Below, piece after piece: positions 5,938 through 24,400 of a DNA stretch of 64,000 bases. A program made the position numbers and the translations under genes. How positions within the stretch are numbered: the first letter of the stretch is position 1; each line of letters starts with the position of its first letter. Under the pieces are notes generated by a model. The model was given only the letters and a program-made list of their open reading frames with translations, made no database searches and was not told the origin of the DNA. Source of the stretch: Actinomycetes bacterium (GTDB lineage: Bacteria > Auribacterota > JAJCYG01); the NCBI GenBank assembly GCA_029263055.1, contig JAJCYG010000002.1, positions 21,362-85,361 of the forward strand, given 5' to 3'.

Positions 5938-6005
5938 CGAAAACAGCTTTGCCTTAAGTGTATGTCGTTGTTTTACTTTTTAACCTGCTAACGATTGAGG
6001 TTCCA

Positions 6006-8306: not shown

Positions 8307-8307
8307 A

Positions 8308-9126
8308 TTAAAGTGTGGTTTGGGCTGCCCTTAGGGCAGCCAGGCCTGCTTCAATTTTGCGGTCTAATTCTTTTTGATGAGCTTGATAAGCTAACTCTTC
8401 CTGACGTGCTTTTTCTGATTCTATTTCTGCTGCTTGATCTAATTCCTCTTGAACGCTGTACCAATCTTCTAGTGTGAATGGCTGCGCTCCATCTTTCCAT
8501 GCTTCGAGTTCAGGAATAAAAAATTGGGGTGCTTCTTGTTCCAGTTTTAGGAGCAACCAAACAGAAAAAGTGGTTTGCATTTCTTCGAGTTCTTCAACAG
8601 TTACTTCTAATTCTTCGATGATTGCTGTTGCAGTGAGTGGCGTTCTTGTTTCAGTTTTTCTGTTTTTGGCTTGAGCTAATTTTATTTTTAATTGAGAGCT
8701 ATGTTTGGCAATAATCTGCCATGCTGTGATCACTTGCATCATATCTGGATCTTCTTTTTCTTCTCTTAATTTTCGAGCTAATGCACCTACGGCATAACTT
8801 TGATCTGCTCCATCTCGAACTAAATCTTCTTCTGTCCAGCCCCAATCCTCTAATACGAGGTGGGCGATATCTTCGCGATTTGAAGGGGGAATAGAAGGGC
8901 GAACTTGAAGGGAGTCTGTTAGGGCTCTTTGCTCATCTATTTCAGCAAGCATTTCTTGGGTTATCCATGGGTTATTAAACTCTCCTTCCTTTATAAGGGC
9001 CTTTTTATGTAGTTTGATGAATTCTGATGTGGCTGCGAGGTAGTTTTTGCTGTTTTGTTGTTTGTAAGAGGGTAAGTTTATGCTGCTAATAAAGATAATT
9101 AAAATAGTTAATAATTTTTGACCCAT
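8308..9126 (-). CDS. Leader-tagged acidic coiled-coil protein (hypothetical)
   Basis: 272 aa. N-terminus MGQKLLTILIIFISSINLPSYKQQNSKNYLAATSE matches the leader of the neighbouring giant genes. The protein is Glu/Asp-rich and helical, and ends ...AAQTTL. It is transcribed divergently from 9353. Confidence 0.6.
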   Translation of the reverse strand: MGQKLLTILIIFISSINLPSYKQQNSKNYLAATSEFIKLHKKALIKEGEFNNPWITQEMLAEIDEQRALTDSLQVRPSIPPSNREDIAHLVLEDWGWTEEDLVRDGADQSYAVGALARKLREEKEDPDMMQVITAWQIIAKHSSQLKIKLAQAKNRKTETRTPLTATAIIEELEVTVEELEEMQTTFSVWLLLKLEQEAPQFFIPELEAWKDGAQPFTLEDWYSVQEELDQAAEIESEKARQEELAYQAHQKELDRKIEAGLAALRAAQTTL

Positions 9127-9249
9127 AACCCACGATTTCCAATTGAGAATGTTTTACAGCAACAACAAATTGATTACTAAACTTTTTTTTTAGAACTGTC
9201 AAAACAAAAAAAAATTCTCTTTTAAAAATGATAATTTGCCAGAAATTAT

Positions 9250-9278
9250 TTGACAAAGGTCTGAAATCGGATTATATC
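9250..9278 (+). promoter_or_regulatory. Candidate sigma70-type promoter of the giant-gene operon (TTGACA-17 nt-TATATC)
   Basis: Perfect -35 hexamer, 17-nt spacer and a -10-like hexamer, about 75 nt upstream of ATG 9353 in a 226-nt AT-rich divergent intergenic region. Confidence 0.35.
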
Positions 9279-9352
9279 TAATCCCTTAGTCCTTGATTAA
9301 TTGTTTGTGTTTTTGATGTTGACTTAACCATGTACCTAGAAGGGGAGTTCCT

Positions 9353-12300
9353 ATGGAAGCATTGCATCCTTCAGCTGTAAGCCGTTCGTCAGTTTTTTAT
9401 CGAGTCAGTTCTATTTTATTAGCTTTATTTCTTATCCAGCCTATTCCCAATAAAATATCAAAACAAAATAAAAACTTAGCTCCAAAAACAATTGCAAGCT
9501 CTGTCAGCTTTGCTCAACCACAATTAGCCCCTCTCTTACTTTCACAAAATGTTTGGACAGTTGATGAAACCAAGGTGTTAGGCACAATGCTAGATCCAAA
9601 TCCTGACGGCTCCTTTACATTGCCTCCAAAGCGCCGTGTGATGGGCTTGGCTCGAGATCCAGAGAATAAAGAGGGTCTTTATCAAACTGCTAATGGGAAT
9701 TGGCATGGACGGCCTACTGATGCGATCCAAGAGCGCATTGTGGATAACTTTAAAGGCGAAATTGCTATGACAGCTAATTTACAAGCAGCGCTCTTTAAGA
9801 TTGTTAATCAAATAGCTTCTAATCCAAGTCTAACTTCTGAAAATTGGCCAGCTGTTGTTTCTAGTGCTGCTTTTAAAGAAAAGGTACAGCAAGAGACGGC
9901 TGTGATTGGCAAAACTTTAGATCAAGTTCTATATATTGTTGAGCAATTAGGAAATCAAATTACTTCAAAAAAACTCAAAGTTAAAAAGCCTGGTGCGTTG
10001 CAAACTGCTTATGCTGAGTTGATGCAAATCTTTTTAGGGCCTGATGAAGTGATTGTAGAAGGATTTGCTTCAGGGTTAAATGCTAATGGAGATTGGGCTT
10101 CAACAGGTTTTCCTATTTCTATTATTGGAAATGATTTCCATGTGTTGGGATCTGACTTGTATGGCCGAGTGATTGCTGCGGGCCGAAATGTAAAACGTTT
10201 TAAAGTAGGCGACATGGCTGTGTTTCAAACCAGTATGCATGATAAAGATGATCCCAATGCGCATGGGGGCCATCCAGGAAAATTAAAAAGTTATCACATT
10301 ACAGGTTATGAAGATCCAATTGGAACGTTTACAGATTTTTATAAAAACGATGCTATGGCTTTTATGCCGGTGACAGAAGAAGAAGTCAAAAAGAAGGTTC
10401 AGGTTTTAGATGGTGGCAAAATTCGAACAGGTGCCACAGTTGAAGAAATGTCGAGTTATGGTTTGGTGCTTCCTACCGTTGAGCATTCTTTAAACCGCTT
10501 GGGTGTGGCCAAGAATAGCGTTGTGATTATGGAAGGTGGAAATGGGGGAACCGGTCGTTATGGCATTCAAGCCGCTAAAGCTCGGGGTGCTTATGTGATT
10601 GGTGTGGTCTCTTCTGAAGCACGGGGTCAAGAAGTGATGCAACTGGGGGCCGACGCTTATATAAACCGAAGAGATTCTCAGTTGGTTCAAGTGGATGATG
10701 CGTTGTGGATGATTGATAAATTTTTGAAAACAGAGACAACCGTTCCTGAAATCGAACATTCAATGGTTCTCGATGAAGAGTTTGATTTAGGAAAATTAAG
10801 AGAGAAGTTAGAAAATCTTATTACTTTTTTAAAAACAACCACACTTCAAGAGGCGATTAAAAAAACAAGTTTAATTCTTGAAGGCGTTTCTAAAAAAGAA
10901 GCCGGTTTTTATTATACAGAGAACTATAAACGACTAGAAACTTCTATTAATAAATTGCTCTCAATTGAAAAATTGCAACCTGGTTTTGTCTTTCGCTCTG
11001 TTCAAGTGTTGAATGCCAATGCAACGCATGAAGATATGAGGAAAGTTAATGAAGACTATGTTGAGTCTGTTAAAAAAGCAGTGAAACAGATTTGGAAAAC
11101 CAATGGTCTTACACGAAAAAGCTTTTTAGCAGATGCGGTGATCAACTTTATGGGAACTCAAACCTATGGTCGCCATGCCATGTCTGTTCGAGCAGGTGAT
11201 TTTTTAAATGGAGATGATTTAGGTGGAAGTACAGCTTCGTTTGGTGGGGGATCTGGTTTTAAAGTTCAGTATCCAGGCCAAGAAGGAATCACAAATATCG
11301 ATACCATGATGAAGCGAATCAGTAAATACCGCCGCCGTGCGGGTATTGATGACCATATTAAAAAAGTGGTTGTGATGGTGGGGGAACGTGATGGAGCAAA
11401 AGTTGAAGTAGAAGAAATGGTCAGTTCTCCTGGAAGAAAAGTATTGGTTGTGGTGCGCAGTGAAAAAGATCTTCAAAGGGTTTTGGAGTGGGGTTTGTTA
11501 AGAGAAGGAATCGATGGAATTATTAATACCTCTGCACCCAAACAAAAGATTATTGTCGAAGGGGATGTTGAGAGCAAAATAGAACAGCTTCAAGCATTAA
11601 GAAAAAGCTCTCTTGTGCGTCAACCAACAGCCATTGTGGTTGAAACTAAAGAAGAGAAAAATAAAATCATTGCTTCTCCTTCTTTTAATAAAGACTTAGA
11701 TGTTGTTTATTCACGGGATGACGATTATGTGGTGACCAGCCTTGCTGAAATGGATGTTGATGATATTGAGCGGCAAAAAGTAGAAGACCAAAAAGCAGGG
11801 ATTAAAAGAAACTATGTTTTTCTTGTTCAAAATAAAGGTGAAAAAGGAAAAGTCTTAAATTTTTATATGAAAGTAAACAAGTGGGTTAAGCGGGGGATGT
11901 TTCATAAGAAAAGAGACATCTTTTTGGAGCCTTACACGATTCAGGCGAATTTAGATAATCCAATGCCAGAGACTCCAATGCCTCTTTCTTATACACCGAC
12001 TCAAGCAGAGCTTAAAGCTCAAGGAAAAAAGGAAAGAGCTTATGCCGCGTGGTTAAATAATGATGCGCGTGGTTTAGGGAAAGCTATTTGGCTTCATTGG
12101 GGGAAAGGAAGTTCTCCTGATCTTGTTTTTGGGCGTGCAGGTTGGCCTACATCAATGGCATCTCTTATCTATGTTTTAGATCGATTTGGTCAAGTGGCGG
12201 TTCGGGGTGATATGTCGAATAAAATGTATGACTTTGATATCCGTCATTTCTGGATGTTTCAAAAAGTGATTTTAACAGCCACTCAAGCGATGATTGGAAC

Positions 12301-13171
12301 TCACTATGCGTCGCCTCGAGAATCTTTAGATGCACATAAGCTAGTTAAAGAAGGAGTGGTTAAGTTGGCCCCTGTGACTGTTTATCCTTGGGAACAAACA
12401 GGAAAAGCTCAAGAAGAAATGGTTAAAGGAAAAAATGTGATTTTGATTGGATCGCCTAAAGCAGGGCTTCAATCGTTGAAAGAAGTGCAAGCTGAAAATA
12501 TCAAACGCTTTTCTGTTGAATTAGGAAGCGAAGATCAAGCAACACGTGAGGCTGCGGCAGCGCAATTGCATTATCAAGCGAGTCTTTTAGCAGATAAAGC
12601 GATTGCTGATTACAGTCAAGTGCAAGGTTTGATTGACCTTTTAGCTAAACCAGCCACTTGTGGTGTGTGTGTGGAACCTGAAACGTTTGAGCAGATTAAA
12701 CAGGCATGGGGCAATCCAAAAGTACACACCATGGAATCGCAAAATGCACGTGAGTTTGAAATTGCTCTACCAGGTGGGATTCACCTAGATATTTTAACTC
12801 CACTAGATCGAGAAAAAGATTCTGCTTTGGTGACTCATCTCAACAAACGAGATGAAGGGATTCAACAAGTTGAAATTTTTACAACAGATGTGGCAAAAGT
12901 AGTTGAAGTGATTAATGCCAATAAATCTGTCTTGGGTTCAGGAACAAGTACTGAAAAACCTTTTCCTGGAATCACCGGAGAAAATGTGGCGTTTCAATTA
13001 CTGAAATTAAAATCAGGTGGAAGAGTCTTAATGGAATTTGTTCAGGCAAGTGCAGAGCAGATTGCTCAGTTAGAAAGTGACCAAAGAACTTCTGCTCGTG
13101 TTGAGCGTAAAGGTCCTTTCTCAGGGGATTGGTTAACAGGTGTTTTAGCATCTTTGGAATCAAGTATTTAA
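9353..13171 (+). CDS. Leader-tagged fusion: crotonyl-CoA carboxylase/reductase-like MDR domain (split by a large insertion) + VOC/methylmalonyl-CoA-epimerase-like domain
   Basis: 1272 aa with a GGGGAG RBS. The MDR/Ccr-like N-part lies around nt 10040-10680 (GDMAVFQ..., SYHITGYEDPIGTFTDFYKNDAMAFMPV, VIMEGGNGGTGRYGIQAAKARGAYVIGVVSS). The Ccr-like C-part lies around nt 12060-12460 (GLGKAIWLHWGKGSSPDLVFGRAG...FDIRHFWMFQKVI...GTHYASPRESLDAHKLVKEGVV...). The VOC-like domain lies around nt 12650-13060 (EGIQQVEIFTTDV...GRVLMEFVQ). Leader ...QPIPNKISKQNKNLAPKT; C-terminus ...LESSI. Confidence 0.75.
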   Translation: MEALHPSAVSRSSVFYRVSSILLALFLIQPIPNKISKQNKNLAPKTIASSVSFAQPQLAPLLLSQNVWTVDETKVLGTMLDPNPDGSFTLPPKRRVMGLARDPENKEGLYQTANGNWHGRPTDAIQERIVDNFKGEIAMTANLQAALFKIVNQIASNPSLTSENWPAVVSSAAFKEKVQQETAVIGKTLDQVLYIVEQLGNQITSKKLKVKKPGALQTAYAELMQIFLGPDEVIVEGFASGLNANGDWASTGFPISIIGNDFHVLGSDLYGRVIAAGRNVKRFKVGDMAVFQTSMHDKDDPNAHGGHPGKLKSYHITGYEDPIGTFTDFYKNDAMAFMPVTEEEVKKKVQVLDGGKIRTGATVEEMSSYGLVLPTVEHSLNRLGVAKNSVVIMEGGNGGTGRYGIQAAKARGAYVIGVVSSEARGQEVMQLGADAYINRRDSQLVQVDDALWMIDKFLKTETTVPEIEHSMVLDEEFDLGKLREKLENLITFLKTTTLQEAIKKTSLILEGVSKKEAGFYYTENYKRLETSINKLLSIEKLQPGFVFRSVQVLNANATHEDMRKVNEDYVESVKKAVKQIWKTNGLTRKSFLADAVINFMGTQTYGRHAMSVRAGDFLNGDDLGGSTASFGGGSGFKVQYPGQEGITNIDTMMKRISKYRRRAGIDDHIKKVVVMVGERDGAKVEVEEMVSSPGRKVLVVVRSEKDLQRVLEWGLLREGIDGIINTSAPKQKIIVEGDVESKIEQLQALRKSSLVRQPTAIVVETKEEKNKIIASPSFNKDLDVVYSRDDDYVVTSLAEMDVDDIERQKVEDQKAGIKRNYVFLVQNKGEKGKVLNFYMKVNKWVKRGMFHKKRDIFLEPYTIQANLDNPMPETPMPLSYTPTQAELKAQGKKERAYAAWLNNDARGLGKAIWLHWGKGSSPDLVFGRAGWPTSMASLIYVLDRFGQVAVRGDMSNKMYDFDIRHFWMFQKVILTATQAMIGTHYASPRESLDAHKLVKEGVVKLAPVTVYPWEQTGKAQEEMVKGKNVILIGSPKAGLQSLKEVQAENIKRFSVELGSEDQATREAAAAQLHYQASLLADKAIADYSQVQGLIDLLAKPATCGVCVEPETFEQIKQAWGNPKVHTMESQNAREFEIALPGGIHLDILTPLDREKDSALVTHLNKRDEGIQQVEIFTTDVAKVVEVINANKSVLGSGTSTEKPFPGITGENVAFQLLKLKSGGRVLMEFVQASAEQIAQLESDQRTSARVERKGPFSGDWLTGVLASLESSI

Positions 13172-13203
13172 GGTTGTTTGATTAACTCATAGGAGGTTGT
13201 GTG

Positions 13204-16200
13204 ATGTTGCGTTTTGTTTCTGGATTAGTGGCAGTGATGTTTTTTGTGAGCTCAGTTGTGACGGTTGATATGCGTTATGTGGGAGCACCCATTCAGAAAC
13301 AAGAAATGTTAGCACCGGCCTCTACAGGAGTGGTCTCTTTAGACTCGGTCTTGAATACACTTGCGTCTATTGCTGAAGGAGAAGCGCTTTTGGATGCTTC
13401 TTTTGATGCGGCTTTGCAAGCACTTCCTTCATTAGAACTCAATCGTAAAGCTGTTTTTGCCTTGAATGCATTGTTGTTACAGCCAATGCCAGGAGCAAGC
13501 GAACAAGAATATGTTGATGCTAAGTCTAAAATCATTGAAGCAATGCTTCAAATTAATGATGGTTTTGCTTTAACAGCTTTAATTACTTTTCGTCATTTGA
13601 TCCAGAAAAAACAAAATCCAGAATTGCGACCTTTAAGCCCGGGGTATTCTTCAGAGTTAGTTTGGGGTATGGGTAAAAAGACAGGAGCCTTAGTAAAAGA
13701 GTTGTTAGATGAGGTTCCTGTTTTAAGTGAAGAGAATGCTAAGTTACTTGCTGCAGGTGCTAAAGAGGCTTGGAGTCAATTGCATTCAGAATCTTATTTA
13801 CCTCACTGGTCTGAACACGTTTTTCCTGCAAATCATCTTCGGATGCTTCAAAAGTCATATTTAGACCAAGCTCCTTATTTGTTGCGTGATTTAGAAGATG
13901 CTGTGGCTCTATCTTTAAAAGTTCAAGGGCGAATTACTTTAGCTAAAATTCAAGCAGAAGGGGAATTTAGTGCTAAAAAAGATAGACTTGATCCCGATGC
14001 GCCAATGCGGTTGCACCCTGGTAACCGTTGGGTTGCTTTGCGTCCTAATAATTTGGGGACTTCTTTTTCCGCGGCTGACTTTGTTTGGTTACGTGATAAT
14101 TTGTTGATTGAGGATTATGATTATCCAAGTCAAAAACGTTTGGCCTTTGATGGAGTGGTGATTCCTAAAGCAATGGATCCAGAAGAAGTCCGCATTGTTT
14201 CGCGTATTCTACGTTTAATTGAAGATAAAAATGATGTGGCACGTGGAACCATGAAAATGGGTTACTTGATTGAAGACCCTACTTCTGCGATTGCTACATA
14301 TGGTTTTGCTAGTGCAGATGAAACTGTGGTGGCGGGTAACTATGGTGTGGCTGACTGGACTGCTTCAACAGGAGGTCGTCCTGCTGCTCAAGAAAAATAC
14401 AATGCTGCTTTGTGGGCCAGAAAAAGAACCGCAGTTGGTTTTCATGCGGCTAAGAGTGCGCACAATCCGCGTGGGGTTGATGCGATTGAAGCGATCAGTG
14501 TGCCGCTCACAGAAAAAGATTCAAAAAGAGAATCACGCCAAGCCCGTCAAGCTGGAATGGATGGAAAATGGTCGGTTCACCCAAATCATATTAAAGGAAT
14601 TATTCAAGAAGGCTGGCCTTTTCACGAAAGTCGGATGACCCGTAAACCTTTAGGGGATTGGACTGACTTTAAACCCTATGATGAAGCAGAGTTAGAGCGT
14701 CGGGCAGCAGAAGGGATTCCTTTAGTTGATCGAGAACCAGCTATTGCTAAAGCGGTTCAACCTCAACGTGCTTCAATTATTATTAATGCTAAAGACTTAG
14801 AACAAATCGAGCAAGCCCTTCAATTACCTTTAGATCAAATTACTTTAAATATTTCTGGTTCTGAAAACTTAGATGCTTTAGCAGTATTACTTGAAAAATA
14901 CAAAACAACAAATAAAAGCCGTTTAGCTTTTCTTTTAGATGCTTCAAGTTTAGATCAAGATGCGTTAGAAAAATTTGGTGCGTCTTGGGATCTATTTGCT
15001 GGAAAAGTAGTCTTTAGCGGTTTGACATTAGACAATGTGACAAGCCCTGATCAAATTAGACAAGTCGACGCATTTCTTAAAAGTCGTTTAGAAAAAGATC
15101 CCACAATTCGTCCTGAGTTGTTTCAAGTTCAAGCACGTATTACATCTAAAGAAATGATTGACCATTCCTTGCTTGAAGGTCGTGATGTTGATTTTTATGA
15201 TGATGCGTGGCAAGCAGCAGATGTGCAATGGGCTTCTGCACCTGAAACCTGGACACATAAAACAGCAGATCGTCTGTTTCAAATTTCTCGCGCTAGTGAT
15301 TATGTGGGAACCTTGGTTTTTGCGGTTCCTGGTTTAGCTAATGACCCGGTTGCTAAAGGTCACTTGCTGTCTGCTGCTAAAGCAGCTGAAGTAGAAGTGG
15401 TGGATGCTTCTGTGGTTGAAGGGGACAATTGGTTGTTGATTGCAGAGCAGATGGCTGAAATTGGTTATCGCGGCCAAGAAATCCCTTCTTTAGATCGTTT
15501 GGAAGGAGCGCTAAAACAATATTCTCCTTCACCTGCATTGATCAACCGTAGTTTAGATGTGACCTTTCAATATGACATGGCTGATGTGTTTGGTGGATTG
15601 GGTGCGATTGCCTATGCGCGTCCTGATGGAGCCACTGAAATTGTCGATGAAGCAACTGCTAAAATCGATCGCGGTGTGGTGGAAGTAGCAGCTGTGGCTG
15701 ATCTTTTTTCACCGGATCAACGTTCTCAATACTTACGCTTGTTGGCTGTGTTGCATAACACGCGTGTTCCTTTTCCTATTAATGAAGAAGAAATTCAAGT
15801 ATTAGAAAATGCCAATGTTTCAGATCAATTTGAAGCGCTTAAAGCAAAACTTTCAGCACAAGATCTTCCGGTGATTAAAATTACTGCAGAAGCATTAGGC
15901 TCTAATTATGAAGAGCGTTTAGCTGGATTAAAAGCAATCTCTCAATTAGCGGTTCAATCAAAAAGTAAGACAGGTCGTTATCCTTTAGTTTTGGTTGAAG
16001 GTTCTGCTGATATTCATTTAGGTCTGATGGCTGATGAACTTGAACCAGAAATAAAATCTCAAGTTGTGGGAATTACTCGTACAGAAAAAGAAGTGTTTGT
16101 CTCTTTTACACATGCCACAAGTTATGAAGTGGCTAAAGCAACTGTGTTGTGGTTGAAATCAGAAGAGCAAGGGTATAACAAAAATACAATCCGTATTTTT

Positions 16201-19200
16201 ACTGATCGTGAAGCTTATGTGAATCAACTCTCAAGTGAAAATGCTAGCCAAGTACAATTAGCTGTTGAACAGTTGATCGCTCATGCACGTGACATTCGAA
16301 ACTCCTTAGAAGGCCAACAAGGAAATATTTATGGTCTTTCGGGTAAAGAGGCTACCTACAAAGATAATGTTCCTTTCTTATCTTCATCCATGCCTGTTCA
16401 GGTAGCTGTTTCTGAAAAGATGTTAGGTCAAATAAAAGATAAGCTTGGATTTGCGGGGGCTGCCGAAGATATGTTAGGCCGTCTAGCAGGTGCTTTTGGA
16501 GCAGCATTGGATCCTAATAGATTAACTTTACACTCAGAAAAAGATGGCTCGACCCTGGTGATTGTTGCTTCAGAGAAACAAGGAATCCTTGGTTATGATA
16601 TGCACACCACTGTTTACACCATGGGTGAAGCGATTCTTTCTGAGTTTGATTCAAAACTTCCTGATGGACGTGTGATTGATGTTGGATTAGTTAAAAAGAG
16701 AAGTTTAGCTGTGGGTGATAAATTTCAATTAGTCGATAGTCGATTCACTTATCAAGATGGAAATCAAATCTCAACAAAGCCAACTCCTCGAACGATTTCA
16801 GATCCTTCCATTCGTGGGTATGCTGGCTTTTCTGAAGACCGTAATTTACATCACCTAAATGAAGAATGGGCAAAAACAAATCTAGGGAGTCGTATTGCAC
16901 ATGGAATGCTGACTTCGAGCTTAGGCTTAGATCGTTTGGGTGCCATTTTAGGCACCTTTTCAAAAGGGTACAGTGTTATCCGTGAAGAGAGTTCATATAA
17001 AGCTAAAGTTCCTTTAAATGATGCACTTAGTTTTACAGCTGAAGTGGTGAGCAAAGATTCTGAAGGAAACCTTAAAGTTGTGATTACTGCGTTTAACAAA
17101 CGGGGTAAACCAGTAAGTGGAAATGTGATTTGGCTCAGTGTGGGTGAAAAAGTAGAACCTTCTGAGTTGGTCCAACAAGTTAAAGCCTTGCAACGAGGCG
17201 AACTTAAAGAAGATGCTTCGCGAGAAACCTACATGGCTGAAACATTTGGGAATGTGGGACCTTTTCTCGAACGCCCAGCTCCTCGTTTTTCAGTTGGAGA
17301 TGAAATGGAATATGCTTGGGTTGTTTCTGAAGAAAAAATCAAAGCTTATGCTTCGTTGTTTGAAGGAAATGAATGGGCCGATCTTTTAATCGGAAAAGCG
17401 GTTTCAGCTAAAGCTTCAAGTTCCATGGCGCCTGGTTCCATTTTATTGGGCTCACGTGTGCTTAAAATTGTCCGTCCGATTCCTGTGGGCGACACATTAA
17501 AAATTAAAGCCACGATTGTTAACTTGCGCAAATCAAGTAAAGGGGCTGACATTTTAACAGAGCATGTCCAAATTTTTGATTCCAATGGAAACTTTTTGTT
17601 ACATGCGCAAGTGACCAAACAAGTTCAAAGTGCATATGAAGAAAAGCAACGTGAGACTTCATTGCGTCCAACACCTGTTTCTGAAGAAGAACAAGGATTG
17701 CCTTTAACACCGCAAACATTTGATGTTGAAGCCTTGATCAATGGACCGGCTGCAGATCTTTCAGCAAAACCTTGGGTCGCTGAGCGTGGAGAAGGTGTTT
17801 CTGAAACCATTGAAGTGACTGGAACAAATATTGTTGAAGAATTGATCAGCCGAATCAATCAATCAGCAACTAAAGATGAAGCCAATCTTGAGTTTGTGAC
17901 TGGGACCGGTGAGAGAAGTTCTCAATCAGCAGCTCAACTGGCTAAAGATGTGAAAGCTTTTGCTTTGGTCTTGCAAAATAAGTTTGGAGTGCGTAAAGGC
18001 GATCGTATTGCCTTGATGTTGGCAAATGGTTATGAATCACGTGTTTCATTATTAGCCTCTATCTATATTGGTGCTGTTGCGGTTCCTTTAGATGTGTTGT
18101 ATCAAGAATCTGAACTTACTTCTCGATTTGAAGATGCTGAGCCAAGAATTGTGATTGCCGATGTTAAACACAATGAGTTGCTTGAATCTATCTCTCGCAG
18201 TGTTGGGGGTGTGGATGATTTAATCTTTGTCGATGAGCGTGACTATTTTAGAACGCCAGATGAAGATGAAAATGCTCCTAACGTAAGTAGTTTTAAAACA
18301 GCTCTAGCAACAAAAGTAGCTGCCCAAATTCAACCCGTTAAATTTCGTAAAGATGGGTTGGATGTGGCGATTCTTCAGTACAAATCAGGAGCAGAGCTTG
18401 GAAAAGTGCGTGGGATTAAATTAACTCACCGTAATCTTTTAGCTGCTGTGGCTCGAAGAGCAGAAGTGACCTTTGCTGGAACAGAAAAAGCAAAACTGGT
18501 TTATGCTAGCCCTGAATATCATTCTTGGGGTTACATCACAGGTGTCTTGCTTCCATTGTGGGCCGGTCAAGGTTCAGTCACCATTGCCGATCAAAAAAGA
18601 GAGAGCCAAGTTCCATTTGTTGATCTTTTATTTCAAGAATTAACAGAAGGAACAGGAACTCACTTTTTTGGTGTGCCATCTGTCTTTGCTCGCTTAAGAG
18701 ACCGAATGGTTAAGGAACAAAAAGTGGCGAGCCCAACTTTTTCAACATTTGTGAGTGCTGCTGCACCTTTAACTGAAGAGTTACGTCTTTCATTTCAAGC
18801 TTTAACCCAAGGAAACTTGGTTCAAGCTTATGGCCAAAAAGAAGCAACCGTTCCTGTGCATGCACCGGTTGATCGCCCATTAAAACCTGGAAGTGTGGGG
18901 TTGCCGGGTCAAGGAGTCGAGTTAATCTTAGTTGATGCAGAAAATCAAGATGGTTTGTCTCCAATTGGTTTAGGCGAAAAGGTTGGAGAGATTGCTCTGT
19001 TAGCTGATCCTGAAGTGGTTGCTTTAGGTGTGTGGAATGATGTGGAAGCAACCCGTGATTTGGCTCAAAAATATCAAGGTCGTTATTACCGCCGAACAGG
19101 TGACATTGGTTTTGTGGATGAACAAGGTTATGTTTATATCTTGAGTCGTCTTGATGATGTGATGATAGTGAGTGGAAATAATGTGTATCCAGCTGAAATT

Positions 19201-21360
19201 GAATCTGTCTTAGAGCAACATTCTGAAGTCGAAGCCTCAATTGTGGTTGGACTTGATGATCCCAAAAAAGGAGAAGTCCCTGTTGCTTATGTTCAATTAA
19301 AGAAAGCAGATAGCTTAGACGAAGAAGTTGTGCGTCAATATGTGGCTAAAAAGTTAGCTGGTTATAAAGTCCCTAAAAATGTGGTCTTTGTTTCAGAGCT
19401 GCCATGGAAAGTAGCAGGAGCGAAAAAAGATCGAGCAAAAATGCGCGCTGTTCTTAAAGAAACAAGCAACTTTGCTGGTGCTCAAGAAGCTGTTCCAGTA
19501 GCTGCAATCGCTCAACCTAAACAAACAATCGAAGAGCTGACAAAAGGGGCTGATGTGAGCTTAGTGGTTGTAACAGGTTTGGTCGATCAAGTTTCTGTTT
19601 ACTTGGCTAATAAATTTAGTGTGGATGGAAGAATTAAAAATGATTTAATTGATGGCGATCAAAAAGCGGCTGAAGAATATGCGCTTATGATTTCTTATTT
19701 AGAGACAGCTATGACTATGTTCTCATTTTTAAACACACGAACAGATTTGACAGAGATAGACAAGCAATTGTCAATCGGTTATTTGGGAGAAGCTTTAAAC
19801 CGTATTCGCCAACTTCTTTTAGATAAGCCTGAAGCCTATGGTTTGAATGCTAAAGAGGTGTGGGAAGCATTTAATAGTAAGCCTGTTGGAAGATTTTTTG
19901 CCGGAGTCAACAGCCATGAATGGTTAGAAGAGGTGGGAGAAGCCTTGCTAAAAAGCAATATCGTTCCAAGTTATCTTTTAGATCCAGAAAATGAAGAAGG
20001 AGAAGCTATAGCAGCAGCTCTATCTGAATTTGCTGATGACAAAATTCGTCCTAACGCTGAGCGTATTCACCGTACTGATGAGTTGGTTTCAGAAGATATT
20101 ATTGGTGGATTGGGTGAGATGGGGGCTTTTGGAATGTCTATACCTGAAGCGTATGGTGGTTTTCAAGAGAACCATGACAACATAGGTATGATTTTAGCCA
20201 CAATTGAACTTTCTGATGCTTCATTAGGTGCGGCTGGTAGTTTAATCACACGTCCAGAAATTACCTCAAAAGTAATCTTACGCGGTGGAACTGAAGAGCA
20301 AAAAGAAACATTGCTCCCAGGAATTGCTGCCGGAGAAAAAATGGTGACTGTTCTCTTTACGGAACCGAACTACGGTTCTGATTTAGCCAATATTAAGATG
20401 ACCGCTGAGTTGGATGAAGAGACGAATGAATGGGTGCTTAATGGAACAAAAATGTGGGGAACTTTTGCCGGTCGTGCTGATTATGGATTGGTATTGGTTC
20501 GAACTAAAAAAGATGAGAGTGGTCAGCTCATCAAAGGGCATGCAGGTCTTTCAACGATTCTCTTTGACAAACCAGCTGTGCGTGATGAATGGACTGACGA
20601 AGAACTTCCTGAAGGTGTGAGAAAAGATGGGGAGTCATATAAGTTTACTCAAGAAACAGGTGGAGAATTGGCTTGGAAACAAGACCATACTACCGGTTAC
20701 CGTGGAATGCATTCCTACACGCTCTTCTTTGATGACTTCCGTGTTCCTGCTGATCGTTTGATTGGTGAAGAAGGGCAAGGATTTTTCTTAGTGGCGAAAG
20801 AAGGTTTGGCAGGGGGCCGTGTTCAAACTGCAGCCCGTTCCATTGGTTTGATGCGAGCAGCTTATCGTGAAGCAGTTAACTTTGCCAATGAGCGCAAACT
20901 TTTTCCAACAAAGGCAAATCCAGGCCGTGTTGAAGCTGACTTTGGTTTGACTAAAGTCTCTGTGGCTAAAATGGCCATGCTGATTCATGGGGCGCAGCAA
21001 TATACGTTTCGGGCAGCAAAGTTAGTGACTGAAGGAGATATTGCTCGTGATCAAGGAGATAAACGAGGCGCAAATAAAGGGCGAACCGAAGCTTCTTTAG
21101 CTAAGTTGGTTTTCTCTCGTTTTGCTAATGAAGTGACTCGAAAAGCGCAGCAGTTACATGGGGGACTTGGTGTGGCTGAAGAATATCCTGTGGCCCGTTA
21201 TGCTGTAGATGCTCAAGTGTTAACTATTTTTGAAGGAGCTGAAGAGATTCTTGCCTTACGTATTGTGGCACCTACCTTTCTCAGAGCTCGTTTAAAAACA
21301 TTGCTACGTGAGCTTGAAGCACGTAAGCAAGCAGAACAAGAAGTAGCCGTTGCCATATAA
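13204..21360 (+). CDS. Leader-tagged megaenzyme: CitE/malyl-CoA-lyase-like + unassigned region + double MaoC hot-dog + AMP-forming acyl-CoA ligase + acyl-CoA dehydrogenase
   Basis: About 2718 aa. ATG 13204 lies 7 nt after AGGAGG (the track starts at GTG 13201). The CitE/HpcH-like domain lies around nt 13830-14640 ([42 protein letters not shown]). The hot-dogs lie around 16700-17620 ([15 protein letters not shown]...IAHGMLTSS). The adenylate-forming domain lies around 17880-19440 ([48 protein letters not shown]). The ACAD domain lies around 19990-21300 ([19 protein letters not shown]). C-terminus ...EVAVAI. Confidence 0.8.
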   Translation: [2718 protein letters not shown]

Positions 21361-21370
21361 GATTTAAATT

Positions 21371-21452
21371 CGCTTTGCTCACATATTCTCGCAAAGGCTT
21401 GGAGGGGGAAAGAGTTGTTTTATTTCCTTTGTCTTTGCGAGAAGAGCAAGGC
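21371..21452 (+). promoter_or_regulatory. Imperfect extended hairpin between the two largest ORFs
   Basis: TTCTCGCAAAGG (21386-21397) pairs with TCTTTGCGAGAA (21432-21443), with partial outer pairing CGCTTTGCTC/GAGCAAGGC. It sits in the 112-nt gap just upstream of the AGGAG RBS of 21473. Confidence 0.3.
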
Positions 21453-21472
21453 TTAACCTTAGGAGTAAAGTT

Positions 21473-24400
21473 ATGCGTTGTATTCGATCTCTGTTTTCAT
21501 TCCTGTTAGTACTCACTTTAATCAATCCCATCCCGATAAAAACAGAAACAAAAGAACTTAGTTTTCTTGCTCCTAAGTCAATTAACTTAGTTGGGGTCGC
21601 CTACGCTTCTTTTAAACAGTTGGTTCAACAAAAACTTTCTCCAGATCAAATCCTTGCTGAATTAGAAGATCGATTTAAAAACTATCCTGAGTATGAAGCT
21701 TTAGTGCCGGTATTAAAGTATTGGGTTGTGGAGCAACGGGGTTTTGCACTTCCTTCTGACTTAGATGGTCTTGTTTATGACGAAGAGGAATATACCAGAA
21801 GATTAGGAGAACCAGGTTTATACCCTTTTTCTCGTTCAAGAAATGCAGAAGGTTTAAGAAGAGGGCTTCAAGTTAGAAAGTATTGGAGTGTGGCCACACC
21901 TGAAGGAACAAATGAAATTTTTCATGAAGTGATTGCTAAAAAGGGATCACCTAGTATGGCATTTGATATTCCGACCCAAATTGGGTTGGATCCAGATGAA
22001 GGGGATCCTTCTGATGTGGGGAATGCCGGAGTTTCGATGTTTCGTTTGAAAGATTATGAAGATGCTTTTGATGGGATTGATCAAACAGCAGTAAACAGTA
22101 ATTTCACCATTAATGGAACGGCGATGTATGTGGTGGCTGCATATGAAGCATTAGCGCGTAAGCGGGCTAAAGAGATGTCTCTTGACGATCTAAGAGCCAA
22201 AGCAAAAAAAATATTACAAGCAGAAGCTAGACGACATAAAAAAAGGAAACGGACTAAACAAGAAGAAGCCGCATTAGCTAGAGCCGCTACATTTGATTCA
22301 ATGGAAGAAAGTGAATTGCGCAAAGAAGCTTTAGTTGTGATGAAAAGTGCGATCCGTGGAACGATTCAAAACGATGTTTATAAAGAGTATGTGGCTCGAA
22401 ATAACTTTGTTTTTCCTTTAAGAGGAACAAATCGTCTCTTTGCTGATTTTATGGAACATGCCCAAAAAGAACTTCCTGTGTTTCGTTTGGTGAGTGTGTG
22501 TGGTTACCATATGCGCGAAAAAGAGAGCACGCCTGCCCAAGAAGTGGCTTATGCGATTAATGATGCGTTGCAATATATTGCTATTACCATGGAGCAAAAG
22601 AAAGATTTAGATCCAAATGAGTTTGTTTCTCTATTTTCTTTTTTCTTTAATACAAAACTCGCTGGTTTTTTAGAAGGAGAAGATGAAAAAAAGACAAACC
22701 TTACCTTATTAACAGAATCTGCAAAAGTTCGAGCAGGGCGTCGCATTTGGGCAAAGCTAATGAAAGAGGGGCTTGGTTTAACAGAGAGTAAAGCACTTAA
22801 TTTTGCTGTGATGAATTACTCGGGTGGAACCGAAGCAACTAAATCTAAAATGGAATTAACAACAGGGCGTTTGGCTCTACAAAGTCTGGCTTCTTTATTG
22901 GGTACTCCTCAGGGAACCAATAGTTATTCTGCGGATGAAGCCATTGATATTCCTGTTCCATTTTACGGAAGAATGTCTCTTTTAACTGACTACATCACTA
23001 TTTTGGAACGTGGGATCACCGATCAAGTTGATCCTGCAGGTGGTTCTTATTATTTTGAATCATTAACAGATCAAATCGAAGCGGAAATTTGGACGATCTT
23101 AAAATCATTTGCTCAAAAGAAAGATTTTCGTGAAGTGCTCACACAGATGCGCAATGATACGAATCGCATTTCCCAAGAAATGGAAAATGCGTTTCAAGCT
23201 CCTTCTACAGATCCAAAGCACTTACCTAAAGTGGGACGTAATGTTTCTACTGAAGGAAAAGATCTTTATCCAACCCAAGAAGCTATTGATCTGCCTGCTT
23301 CTGAAGCCATTAAAGAGGAAGAAAGAACAGCAGCAAAAGAAGAAAAATATAAGCCGCCAAGATTAAGTGATGAAGAAAGAAGACGGGTAGCACAACTTCC
23401 AGAGTCAATCAGAGATCGAATTTATGGCATCAATGAAACGTTAAGGCAGTCTGGCTTAAAACCAGATATTCGAAGGCGTTTAGTTGATTTAAGAACTCAT
23501 TTGATGACGCGTGATAATGAAATCGTTTTTGGTTACATTGAACGATTAAAAGTTGCTGCTCAATCAGGTGAAACTAATTTAATGGATTTGACTGTTGAAG
23601 CAATCGAAGCAGGGTTAACCGTTGGAGAATGGAAAAAAGCATTAACAGAAATATTTGGAGAGTCAGCTACTGGCTTTGATCGCGTTACTTCTGTGGGAGC
23701 AGGTCCTTGGCAACCTCAAAATCCAGATGATTTATCAAGAGATCAATCTGTTCCTGTCTACTCTGAAACAATTAAAGAATTTATTTTGGCTCAGGATGGG
23801 GTTGAGTCTTCTTTAAAAGAAGGCCTTGAAAAAAACTTTTTTGATGAAACTAATTCTGATTTGGTTCAAGCAGATGCTTTAGAGGCTCCGGGGCAGTATC
23901 CTTATACAAGAGGAACATCTGATTCTGAATACAAATTAAATGCAGTTGTTTCCAGACAGTGGACATCTACAGTTCAAGATCCTTTGACGAGTACCTTATT
24001 AAGTCGCCCTACTTCTCAATCTGAAAAAGATATTATTGATGCGATACTAACTGGAAAAAAATTAGAGATTAATCTTGATGGTTGGGCTTTAGCTGAAGAG
24101 GGGGCTGATGCAAAGTGGGAAATGGCCCTTTTAATTCGTAATGCCCATTCTTTAATTGAAACCATTGTTAGTGAGCTCAAAGAGAAAAGCAATATAGATA
24201 TTCAGCCTGAAACCCTTTTAGAATCGATTTCTGTGACCGTTAGTATTGGAGATGATGCGTTGACCGAAGTTGCTAAAATCCGCGCATTGCGTCAGCTTTG
24301 GGCTCAATGGTTTAGCGAAGCTTATGGACTTTCCCAAGAACACAAAGGTCTTAAACTAAAAATCAATGCTCGAACAGCAGCTTATGTTCTTTCTAAAGAA

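Follow-up and report, generated by a model that had tools for sequence, protein, structure and literature searches.

A 2,718-residue fusion protein as a candidate single-chain dehydrogenase, hydratase and lyase of the ethylmalonyl-CoA pathway

The ethylmalonyl-CoA (EMC) pathway and its synthetic offshoots, e.g., the CETCH cycle, run on free enzymes, and their CoA-ester intermediates are leaky and reactive. Known malyl-CoA lyases (Mcl1 of Rhodobacter sphaeroides, 4L9Y; the Methylobacterium enzyme, 5UGR; the Chloroflexus enzyme, 4L7Z/4L80) are homo-hexamers in which each subunit has its own TIM barrel and its own lid; catalysis involves an Asp42-Arg76 pair, with Glu141 and Asp168 as Mg2+ ligands (MCLR numbering), and the lid closes the active site of the neighbouring subunit, to which it donates the catalytic Asp299 (PMC3832036). 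The (2S)-methylsuccinyl-CoA dehydrogenases (MCD; PdMCD, 6ES9; 8CIW) are represented by PdMCD, a free homodimer with a cluster of three arginines and the catalytic Glu535, and MCD has an N-terminal extension of about 170 residues which mimics a dimer-dimer interface (PMC5798300). A single chain handling successive CoA esters is found in the propionyl-CoA synthase of Chloroflexus, in which ligase, hydratase and reductase are fused around a reaction chamber (Bernhardsgruetter et al. 2018, as related in PMC7289016).

The megaenzyme described here resembles propionyl-CoA synthase in that a single chain carries an ANL ligase-type domain, a redox enzyme and a hydratase, which deal with successive CoA esters, but the parts are different: a crotonase-fold hydratase and an MDR reductase in the synthase, a double hot dog, an ACAD and a CitE-type lyase in the megaenzyme. 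By analogy, the synthase with its chamber is a plausible model for the sequestration of intermediates in the megaenzyme.

The window, i.e., the whole stretch of 64,000 nucleotides of contig JAJCYG010000002.1 (assembly GCA_029263055.1, Auribacterota) that was analysed, carries a complete open reading frame at 13204..21360 on the plus strand, as are all features given below, encoding 2,718 aa plus a stop (uninterrupted frame 13201/13204..21360). The Shine-Dalgarno sequence TAGGAGG (13190..13196) lies 7 nt 5' of ATG 13204, and the product is therefore taken to be 2,718 aa long. A collinear orthologue of 2,767 aa (58% identity, 100% coverage) is present in NCBI assembly GCA_040960375.1 and a second time, with the gene neighbourhood unchanged, on an independently assembled Logan contig (SRR25508635); every segment is conserved, identity ranging from 40 to 76% by segment, with values of 70-76% for the three catalytic modules and 57-59% for the ANL module. 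The genome is a draft of 124 contigs, which leaves some room for chimeric joins in the assembly, for the fusion of separate gene calls or else for a decaying pseudogene, though we regard all of these as extremely improbable: the frame runs stop-free for 8.2 kb behind a consensus Shine-Dalgarno sequence, two independent assemblies contain the collinear orthologue with the same neighbours, three modules have intact catalytic residues and no segment has escaped conservation between the orthologues. An earlier sequence-only reading of this DNA had proposed the single frame of about 2718 aa, had named an assembly artefact as the finding that could overturn it and had recommended searching for orthologous fusions; the frame is borne out by its strong ribosome-binding site and by the orthologue that such a search recovered, which also counters the artefact.

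The fusion itself was found in two genomes only, among billions of proteins. Within the phylum, the protein occurs in one of 79 genomes, namely that of the window, and two scans of 185,579 species genomes returned no relative, the only matches being unrelated ligases and ACADs; a word-indexed homologue search with a 990-aa piece comprising the lyase and the centre gave no match either. Over the whole window no Rfam family was detected, and promoter and terminator scans stayed at or below chance level.

We consider it fairly probable that this one chain comprises the last three enzymes (the "back half") of the EMC route for acetate assimilation, together with a lid lent by a dead lyase barrel, an ANL ex-ligase and a membrane tether. 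The C-terminal FAD-dependent ACAD would oxidise (2S)-methylsuccinyl-CoA to mesaconyl-CoA, the double hot dog would hydrate this to beta-methylmalyl-CoA, and the first lyase barrel would cleave the latter into glyoxylate and propionyl-CoA. The domain identities and the intact catalytic residues can be read directly, and the substrates are proposed from homology and gene context. The same route from methylsuccinyl-CoA through mesaconyl-CoA and methylmalyl-CoA to glyoxylate plus propionyl-CoA had been put forward from the sequence alone, as had the four domain calls behind it (lyase, double hot-dog, adenylate-forming domain and ACAD); the domain calls hold in Pfam, the motifs quoted for them (DLEDAV, PKAMDPEEV, LIEDPTSA, GYAGFSEDRNLHHLN, YKSGAELGKVRG, YGQKEA and KVAGAKKDR) are all present, and the route gains support from the ACAD scores and arginine cluster, from the lyase profile and from the CCR-like and B12 mutase genes of the operon.

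The first lyase module (residues 200-475, 13801..14628) is a TIM barrel of the malyl-CoA lyase type in which the catalytic residues are present. The Pfam HpcH/CitE match (313-461) is weak, and D229, R280, E357 and D384, which correspond to MCLR D42, R76, E141 and D168, are kept in six of six family members, so that the barrel, the Asp-Arg pair and the Glu/Asp Mg2+ ligands are shared with the known enzymes. A profile of the family (A5) scored 131, 101, 86 and 82 bits against the malyl-CoA lyases 5UGR, 4L9Y, 4L7Z and 6KIN, as compared to 67 bits for CLYBL, 62 for citrate lyase beta and 32 for the (S)-citramalyl-CoA lyase 8KHL. By these profile scores, barrel 1 is nearer to malyl-CoA/beta-methylmalyl-CoA lyases than to citrate, citramalyl-CoA or HMG-type lyases, in agreement with the earlier call of a CitE/HpcH-like lyase, and the megaenzyme is the sole CitE-like lyase of the genome.

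No lid belonging to barrel 1 was found, the HMM alignments ending at the HP-x-x-I motif. The position of the lid is occupied by a linker, Pro-rich and about 45-50 residues long, for which a single helix is predicted (14629..14763), and the site of the lid aspartate reads E/E/D/R/D/K across the family, i.e., there is no conserved lid Asp after this barrel. The linker contains 'PLVD' in the megaenzyme and 'PLFE' in the orthologue, possibly the vestige of a lid acid, although neither occurs in the other four members of the family.

Following the linker, residues 521-870 (14764..15813) form a second, degenerate malyl-CoA-lyase barrel with a C-terminal lid. A profile of this segment (A2) matched 4L9Y at 6e-17 (chain residues 48-335) and 5UGR at 6e-15, spanning both barrel and lid, and in a Foldseek search with an AF2 model of moderate quality (pLDDT 60, pTM 0.60) the top 23 matches were malyl-CoA lyases, at a sequence identity to solved lyases of merely about 12-20%. 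The catalytic residues have been lost, their positions now reading N549, D578 (in place of the catalytic Arg, MCLR R76), and T647 and G710 (in place of the two Mg2+ ligands). Across the aligned members the Arg76 position reads D/N/K/Q/D, that of Glu141 T/T/K/R/N/(E)/K (the Glu being lost in all except P0124) and that of Asp168 G/G/G/V/A/G, the R76 and D168 equivalents thus being gone in every aligned member. The lid aspartate D815 (EIVDEATAKIDR), on the other hand, is invariant (7/7). By its residues barrel 2 is catalytically dead.

Barrel 1 has its residues but is lidless, and barrel 2 is dead but retains the lid Asp; this therefore suggests that the tandem lyase is an intramolecular pseudo-dimer. 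By analogy with the trans-acting lid documented for the known enzymes, the lid of the dead barrel would close barrel 1, either within a chain or between chains. Where a known lyase repeats one complete subunit, the megaenzyme joins a live lidless barrel and a dead lidded one as tandem copies in a single chain.

The double hot dog (residues 1161-1480, 16684..17643; Pfam MaoC at 1195-1296, second hot dog at 1407-1472) carries the Asp/His pair of (R)-hydratases in its N-terminal half (D1212 and H1217 in SEDRNLHH), and the second hot dog is non-catalytic. Its profile matches (R)-enoyl-CoA hydratases (5CPG at 91 bits, 1IQ6), its NCBIfam matches are of the HadA/HadB type only, and it shares 33% identity with its counterpart in the Mcl-...-Mch fusion P0124. 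The paralogy with an upstream hot dog in the window, noticed in the earlier reading, was also recovered (5958-8306, 27% identity over 275 aa, E = 2e-21). We infer its role as a mesaconyl-CoA hydratase from the fusion and the gene context.

The C-terminal module (residues 2265-2690, 19996..21273; Pfam ACAD N/M/C at 2264-2688) is an ACAD core, as had been called, and more precisely one of the methylsuccinyl-CoA dehydrogenase type. It scored 291 and 192 bits against the (2S)-methylsuccinyl-CoA dehydrogenases 8CIW and 6ES9, with generic ACADs reaching about 150 bits at most. R2350, R2500, R2545 and E2677 correspond to PdMCD R252, R376, R421 and E535, so the carboxylate cluster of three arginines and the catalytic Glu are shared, as are the GYRGM loop and PdMCD Ser248, Thr418 and Phe287. 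The small Ala285 of the PdMCD C2-methyl pocket is replaced by Val2383; the equivalent A282V variant of RsMCD is active at about half efficiency (PMC5798300). The module differs from PdMCD in being the end of a 2,718-aa chain and in an insertion of about 25 residues (DEWTDEELPEGVRKDGESYK...) that is missing in both 6ES9 and 8CIW. It is preceded by a conserved helical region of 184 residues (2081-2264, 19444..19995) similar in position and length to the MCD extension but with no detectable sequence similarity to it; this region has no PDB or Pfam match, and its alignment with the extension of the ACAD L007 is collinear but weak (E = 0.6).

The genes adjacent to the megaenzyme encode a CCR-like protein (best match TIGR01751), a B12 mutase fused to a carboxyltransferase, and KAS III, and the cluster of the orthologue additionally holds a malate synthase-ICL fusion. 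Related fusions were found in other lineages, namely P0123/P0125 (about 1,080 aa, Mcl-psiMcl-(VOC)-Mch, with candidate division NC10 as the label of one cluster member), P0124 (2,148 aa) and P0126 (1,544 aa), and no description of P0123-P0126 was found in the searchable literature. Like the megaenzyme, they combine a tandem of a live barrel and a dead lidded barrel with a following double hot dog, and their neighbours include a B12 mutase and an ACAD of the MCD type: in one lineage, Mcl-psiMcl-Mch lies beside ACAD-mutase-B12, and in another Mcl-psiMcl-3HCDH-CCR-VOC-Mch lies beside a 572-aa ACAD with 45% identity to the one in the megaenzyme. The megaenzyme differs from them in having the ANL module, the region 871-1160 and an ACAD on the lyase chain, all three of which they are without. 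As both the neighbouring genes and fusions of three other architectures connect these enzymes with crotonyl-CoA carboxylase and a B12 mutase, the EMC reading is well supported.

The ANL ligase-like module (residues 1545-2080, 17836..19443) has a full two-domain ANL fold, with Pfam AMP-binding at 1562-1931 (PF00501, E = 4e-46), AMP-binding_C at 1999-2068 (PF13193, E = 4e-17) and a score of 259 bits for NF004837. Its motifs were compared with those of the 118 nearest free-standing ligase homologues. The A3 P-loop, canonically (T/S)(S/G)G(T/S)(T/S)GxPKG, is degenerate with one residue inserted, reading YKSGAELGKVRG (18379-18414) in the megaenzyme and YKAGQELGQVQG in the orthologue: two T/S positions, each occupied as such in 118/118 homologues, are changed to K and to A (Q in the orthologue), a further T/S (117/118) is changed to E, and the lysine (117/118) to R (Q in the orthologue). 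At A5, YGx(T/S)E, the T/S found in 111 of the 118 is replaced by Lys with retention of the Glu (YGQKE, 18829-18843), A7 TGD and the A8 Arg/hinge Asp are retained (RRTGD, SRLDD), and A10 (Px4GK) reads LPWKVAGAKK, in which the canonical spacing puts Ala at the Lys position and MAFFT places an inserted Ala before Lys2074. A third lineage (P0128) has just a 74-aa piece of the ligase, its loop equally degenerate. These motifs indicate that the module keeps its acyl- and adenosine-binding elements and has lost the phosphate-gripping P-loop, and that it probably no longer forms an acyl-adenylate from ATP; it may well have become a structural or nucleotide/CoA-ester-binding part of the assembly. The ligase of propionyl-CoA synthase differs from it in having canonical motifs and in being active.

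The sequence-only reading, which had asked for an alignment of A3, A5, A8 and A10, left it between altered chemistry and repurposing; with A3 and A5 diverged, A8 kept and G-A-K for G-K at A10, the balance tips, though not decisively, towards a module that has lost canonical adenylation. It seems unlikely to us that the ligase still works, by means of a non-canonical ATP site in which Lys1727, Lys1734/Arg1736, Lys1879 and Lys2074 substitute for the usual P-loop and A10 contacts; such an enzyme might supply acetate or propionate to the otherwise unchanged pathway as CoA esters. The full-length domain, the intact TGD, A8 Arg/Asp and YH..G pocket motifs, several basic residues close to the lost ones and a 27-residue block at A5 (VQAYGQKEATVPVHAPVDRPLKPGSVG) that is identical in the orthologue all fit such an enzyme, and the module stays under constraint. 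The basic residues of the loop are unconserved, though, K1734 and R1736 both being Q in the orthologue; both proteins have an acidic Glu within the loop, a loop of this kind is missing from all 118 nearest homologues, and other lineages have the same set of modules without the ligase domain, one keeping a fragment only.

An active ligase would also be needed if the chain served C5-dicarboxylate catabolism, in which methylsuccinate, mesaconate or itaconate is activated to its CoA ester, the ACAD forms mesaconyl-C4-CoA, the hot dog (S)-citramalyl-CoA, and the lyase releases acetyl-CoA and pyruvate. This would give a job to an otherwise unexplained domain, whose best solved relatives are dicarboxylate ligases (the malonyl/methylmalonyl-CoA synthetase 4FUT, 149-151 bits, and oxalyl-CoA synthetases), and the itaconate/methylsuccinate route of pseudomonads uses the same four enzyme families (PMC12290011). 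We nevertheless hold it to be very unlikely, given the degenerate P-loop, the barrel 1 profile (131 bits against a malyl-CoA lyase, 32 against 8KHL), an ACAD nearest to EMC-type dehydrogenases with a long N-terminal extension, and an operon and three fusion architectures that point to CCR, epimerase and B12 mutase, i.e., to internal makers of methylsuccinyl-CoA.

About 620 residues in total (45-199, 871-1160 and 2081-2264) are without a domain match. Residues 45-199 (13336..13800) contain conserved blocks, including LLLQPMPGASEQE and PLSPGYxSELVWG, and are 57% identical to the orthologue, with no Pfam match at E <= 0.01 and no second copy in the genome. Residues 871-1160 (15814..16683) are the least conserved part (40% identity to the orthologue); the first 130 or so are probably alpha/beta, the cropped AF2 model has a pLDDT of 49, and no usable match was obtained in Pfam (E up to 10), in a PDB sequence search, by Foldseek or when 1.84 billion representative proteins were searched exhaustively with HMMER. 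Two candidate identities for this region were rejected: VOC (a VOC/epimerase holds that position in P0123 and P0124) at an hhalign probability of 0.1, and GAF, as the weak match to a 7xGAF histidine kinase falls on inter-GAF linker repeats and in the stretch of lowest conservation, part of which is deleted in the orthologue. The central region of about 2 kb formerly described as unassignable, for which a Foldseek search had been advised, is therefore only in part so: about half of it, residues ~521-870, matched malyl-CoA lyases and is the degenerate second barrel with its intact lid, and 871-1160 remains without assignment. The former count of five modules was too low, with this second lyase-like barrel hidden in the centre and the further stretches 45-199 and 2081-2264.

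The chain begins with a leader (residues 1-44, 13204..13335) in which residues 4-21 (FVSGLVAVMFFVSSVVTV) are hydrophobic and residues 34-41 form the motif EMLAPAST, and ends with a C-terminal helix and tail, ...QEVAVAI (21274..21357), with the small-small-Ile end seen in other leader-bearing proteins. The same leader is found on ten proteins in the window and about 70 genome-wide, and is kept in the orthologue. It is probably a membrane tether, with the body of the enzyme in the cytoplasm, because the chemistry needs CoA esters and the ETF genes of the genome are untagged (ETF alpha and beta are both present and of ordinary size). A far-reaching combination of these ideas would make the P-loop-less ex-ligase a nucleotide/CoA-ester-binding wall or gate, or an AMP-assisted thioester-handling site, of a membrane-tethered chamber that releases no intermediates and in which a dead duplicate lends its lid, the whole belonging to an undescribed sorting class of about 70 leader- and tail-tagged proteins that brings central metabolism together in one place in the cell; as a whole, this appears quite doubtful to us.

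In conclusion, the tandem lyase shows in clean form how the two copies of a duplication can degenerate in complementary ways, with the barrel chemistry kept in one copy and the trans-acting lid in the other, by which a homo-oligomeric active site would become intramolecular. As for the ANL module, it is rare in nature for such a domain to be conserved and yet to lack its ATP-phosphate loop, and this one could be used to explore what else the fold can do. Finally, substrate channelling in the EMC pathway could readily be tested on a natural chain that unites dehydrogenase, hydratase and lyase, and likewise on the sister architectures in which CCR, epimerase and mutase are fused.

The megaenzyme is encoded by one plus-strand open reading frame (13201/13204 to 21360), and a Shine-Dalgarno sequence, TAGGAGG, ends 7 nt upstream of the ATG at 13204; its product is therefore 2,718 aa long. 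Pfam places a weak HpcH/CitE match at residues 313-461, MaoC at 1195-1296, a second hot dog at 1407-1472, AMP-binding at 1562-1931, AMP-binding_C at 1999-2068 and three ACAD domains at 2264-2688. The motifs quoted by the sequence-only reading were all found in this frame, its calls of a lyase, a double hot dog, an adenylate-forming domain and an ACAD hold, and the paralogy it proposed between the hot dog and that of the 5958-8306 gene is borne out at 27% identity (E = 2e-21). The ORF is not an assembly artefact: P0003, the sole other full-length relative in 5.8 billion protein clusters (2,767 aa, 58% identity, 100% coverage), is collinear with it end to end, and its gene was assembled twice independently, in a contig of the NCBI MAG GCA_040960375.1 and in a Logan contig. 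The neighbours are syntenic: a CCR-like 1,302-aa gene lies upstream, and the genes downstream are for a B12 mutase and for a malate synthase-isocitrate lyase fusion. A 176-aa antisense ORF (18710-19240, minus strand) and a 122-aa ORF in another frame (14270-14638, plus strand) lie wholly within the gene and are most likely chance frames.

About 2 kb at the centre of the gene had been considered unassignable, and about half of this is a second, degenerate malyl-CoA lyase (barrel 2, residues 521-870). An exhaustive HMMER search of 1.84 billion representatives with residues 470-1190 matched a handful of proteins, the informative ones all being fusions with a CitE-like lyase first and a MaoC double hot dog last. 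The profile of the middle segment common to these fusions matches the Rhodobacter malyl-CoA lyase 4L9Y (E = 6e-17) and Methylobacterium 5UGR (E = 6e-15) over chain residues 48-335, which is the entire barrel and C-terminal lid. An AlphaFold model of residues 200-1189 reached moderate quality overall (pLDDT 60), the two barrels lying mostly at 75-90, and malyl-CoA lyases were its top 23 PDB matches in Foldseek.

In malyl-CoA lyase structures Glu141 and Asp168 (Rhodobacter enzyme numbering) hold Mg2+. The superfamily conserves Arg76, which is held by Asp42, and Asp299, which is part of a C-terminal lid that shuts over the neighbouring subunit's active site (PMC3832036). When these five positions were mapped onto six family members, barrel 1 (residues 200-475) was found to keep Asp42, Arg76, Glu141 and Asp168 in all six (D229, R280, E357 and D384 in the megaenzyme), whereas barrel 2 has N/D/D/D/D at Asp42, has lost Arg76 (D/N/K/Q/D) and Asp168 (G/G/G/V/A/G) and retains Glu141 in one member only. 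The lid Asp299 is invariant in barrel 2 (7/7, in EIVDEAT; D815 in the megaenzyme), and barrel 1 has no lid, the aligned position reading E/E/D/R/D/K. HMM alignments of barrel 1 to solved lyases end at the HP-x-x-I motif, ahead of the lid, and all that follows this motif is a Pro-rich linker of about 50 residues with one predicted helix; as a caveat to a lid-less barrel 1, this linker reads PLVD in the megaenzyme and PLFE in P0003, the acid being absent there in the four other members. By these alignments the two barrels are complementary, one with the catalytic residues and the other with the lid Asp; most simply, barrel 2 would have been retained, though dead, because its lid closes and completes the barrel 1 active site.

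The remainder of the centre, residues 871-1160, did stay unmatched by Pfam, PDB sequence search, HMMER over 1.84 billion representatives and Foldseek. A cropped AF2 model reached a pLDDT of only 49, its first ~130 residues showing an alpha/beta pattern with modest confidence, and neither a VOC nor a GAF identity survived testing. No segment of the protein is less conserved (40% identity to P0003). The region is lineage-specific, the sister fusions having nothing or a VOC epimerase in its place. Searches gave no family assignment for residues 45-199 and 2081-2264 either.

For the ligase-like (ANL) module, the best solved relatives are malonyl/methylmalonyl-CoA synthetases, at about 150 bits, and the nearest free-standing homologues are only 30-33% identical. 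Alignment with the 118 nearest homologues confirmed the diverged P-loop noted earlier: the A3 loop, Y-T-S-G-T-T-G-x-P-K-G in the homologues, is Y-K-S-G-A-E-L-G-K-V-R-G in the megaenzyme and Y-K-A-G-Q-E-L-G-Q-V-Q-G in P0003; A5, YGx(T/S)E with T/S in 111/118, is YGQKE in both; and A10, G-K, is G-A-K in both, where the HMM alignment with canonical spacing has Ala in the slot of the catalytic Lys. The P-loop keeps neither its three hydroxyl residues (T/S in 117-118/118 homologues) nor its Lys (K in 117/118), one residue is inserted, an acidic Glu stands within the loop, and its only basic residues differ between the megaenzyme and P0003. The YH..G pocket motif, TGD and the A8 Arg/Asp do survive. 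P0003 matches the megaenzyme residue for residue over a block of 27 around A5, and across the module the two are 57-59% identical, as against 70-76% in the three catalytic modules; the sister architectures have no such module. As to the choice once offered between altered chemistry and repurposing, the balance tips modestly towards canonical ATP-dependent adenylation having been lost, with the fold probably kept for binding or architecture; an unusual but active chemistry is less likely.

A third lineage encodes P0128, a protein of 377 aa (L016:165-1298, ENA ERZ23493608 scaffold_175) which lies at the position expected for the megaenzyme, directly upstream of a leader- and tail-tagged mutase-B12-carboxyltransferase fusion of 2,618 aa. 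It retains only the lid region, with the end of the dead barrel, and a 74-residue ANL piece with an equally degenerate P-loop, YRVGADSGTVQAVQVTH, followed by an ...ATSI tail, and is possibly a megaenzyme that has been reduced or broken. Its frame stays open beyond the called Met, with the linker helix continuing there, as far as an upstream stop close to the beginning of the contig.

The three catalytic modules, ACAD, hot dog and barrel 1, fit the end of the ethylmalonyl-CoA (EMC) pathway, in line with the route proposed earlier from methylsuccinyl-CoA to glyoxylate plus propionyl-CoA. The ACAD module scores 291 bits (8CIW) and 192 bits (6ES9) against the solved (2S)-methylsuccinyl-CoA dehydrogenases, and at most 150 bits against all other ACADs. 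Hallmarks of these enzymes are an Arg252/Arg376/Arg421 cluster, the catalytic Glu535 and an N-terminal extension of ~170 residues (PMC5798300); the module keeps equivalents of all four residues and of Ser248, Thr418 and Phe287, and has Val where the methyl-pocket Ala285 stands, an exchange with which RsMCD is still active at about half efficiency (PMC5798300). Where the extension would lie there is a 184-residue helical segment, for which similarity searches gave no significant match. Ahead of the GYRGM loop the core carries an acidic insertion of ~25 residues, VRDEWTDEELPEGVRKDGESYK (residues 2457-2482, about nt 20572-20649), conserved in P0003 and missing in both solved methylsuccinyl-CoA dehydrogenases. 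The barrel 1 family profile scores 131, 101, 86 and 82 bits against four solved malyl-CoA/beta-methylmalyl-CoA lyases, and 67, 62 and 32 bits against CLYBL, citrate lyase beta and (S)-citramalyl-CoA lyase. The N-terminal hot dog resembles (R)-enoyl-CoA hydratases in profile matches and carries their Asp/His in SEDRNLHH; the double hot dog is assigned as mesaconyl-CoA hydratase by context only.

The gene lies within a tight string (gaps 0-112 nt) which also encodes a CCR-like protein (best NCBIfam match TIGR01751), a 2,812-aa B12 mutase (alpha-like, beta-like and B12 domains) fused to AccA/AccD-type carboxyltransferase halves, and a KAS III-like protein, with a hot dog plus reductase-like protein upstream. 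Only one gap in the 9353-34237 string is sizeable, the 112-nt spacer after the stop codon (21361-21472). Neither this spacer nor the rest of the window matches an Rfam family, and promoter- and terminator-like sites in the scanned stretch 8200-22000 were not above chance. Among the sister fusions, locus L006 encodes a leader-bearing 1,544-aa lyase-dead lyase-hydratase protein followed by a 2,832-aa ACAD-mutase-B12 fusion, and locus L007 a 2,148-aa protein (lyase, dead lyase, 3-hydroxyacyl-CoA dehydrogenase, CCR-like, VOC epimerase, double hot dog as hydratase) followed by a 572-aa ACAD 45% identical to the megaenzyme's ACAD module. At L006:1-23133 (GCA_041643075.1, JBGGHH010000506.1) a malate synthase/enolase/phosphoglycerate kinase protein of >3,400 aa precedes the fusion; at L007:1298-9413 (groundwater metagenomes ERZ27253378 and ERZ978390) the 2,148-aa chain has no leader, overlaps the start of the MCD-sized ACAD, has the dead-lyase lid as its second element and holds more of the pathway per chain than the megaenzyme. 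As "Rosetta stone" fusions they tie lyase, hydratase and dehydrogenase to CCR, epimerase and mutase, which together make up the EMC pathway. The window's own genome (2.95 Mb, ~97% complete) encodes no CitE-like lyase other than the megaenzyme. Its ETF alpha and beta genes, of ordinary size, lie beside another ACAD, and a malate synthase-ICL fusion (open frame of 1,209 aa, C117:22580-25564, minus strand) is there to consume glyoxylate; the equivalent 1,062-aa fusion of the P0003 cluster lies directly downstream of its mutase.

The N-terminus of the megaenzyme combines a basic residue, a hydrophobic segment of 18 residues and the EMLAPAST motif, and the chain ends in ...AVAI. This pattern, in which x-(Y/F/N)-L-(A/S)-P-x-(S/T) comes ~30-65 residues from the start, after a hydrophobic segment, and the C-terminus ends in (S/A)-(I/L), is common to ten window proteins (genes at 5958, 8308 on the minus strand, 9353, 13204, 21473, 29912, 31262, 38539, 40934 and 58303) and about 70 in the genome, including glycolytic fusions, a multi-HTH protein and a 7,493-aa giant (C69). 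Most tagged proteins have the (S/A)-(I/L) ending, often with Phi-E/D-x before it; a crude regex gave 79 candidates, 36 of which fit the strict tail pattern, compared with 130 of 2,664 ORFs overall. We infer that the leader does not serve for export but tethers the protein to a membrane, its body lying in the cytoplasm, because the ETF genes carry no tag and the reactions depend on CoA esters and FAD.

No megaenzyme relative was found in the other 78 species of the Auribacterota set or in pattern-seeded scans of 185,579 species genomes, which reach fairly close relatives only, and our literature search found no description of natural lyase-hydratase, lyase-dead lyase or larger EMC pathway fusions. 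Each module belongs to a known family; what looks new is the single-chain dehydrogenase-hydratase-lyase, the lyase composed of an active barrel and a dead barrel with lid, and the conserved ANL module without a P-loop. As a fused segment of a CoA-ester pathway, propionyl-CoA synthase with its reaction chamber (PMC7289016) comes closest in function. For the megaenzyme lyase, duplication and complementary loss would have made a homo-oligomeric, trans-completed active site intramolecular.
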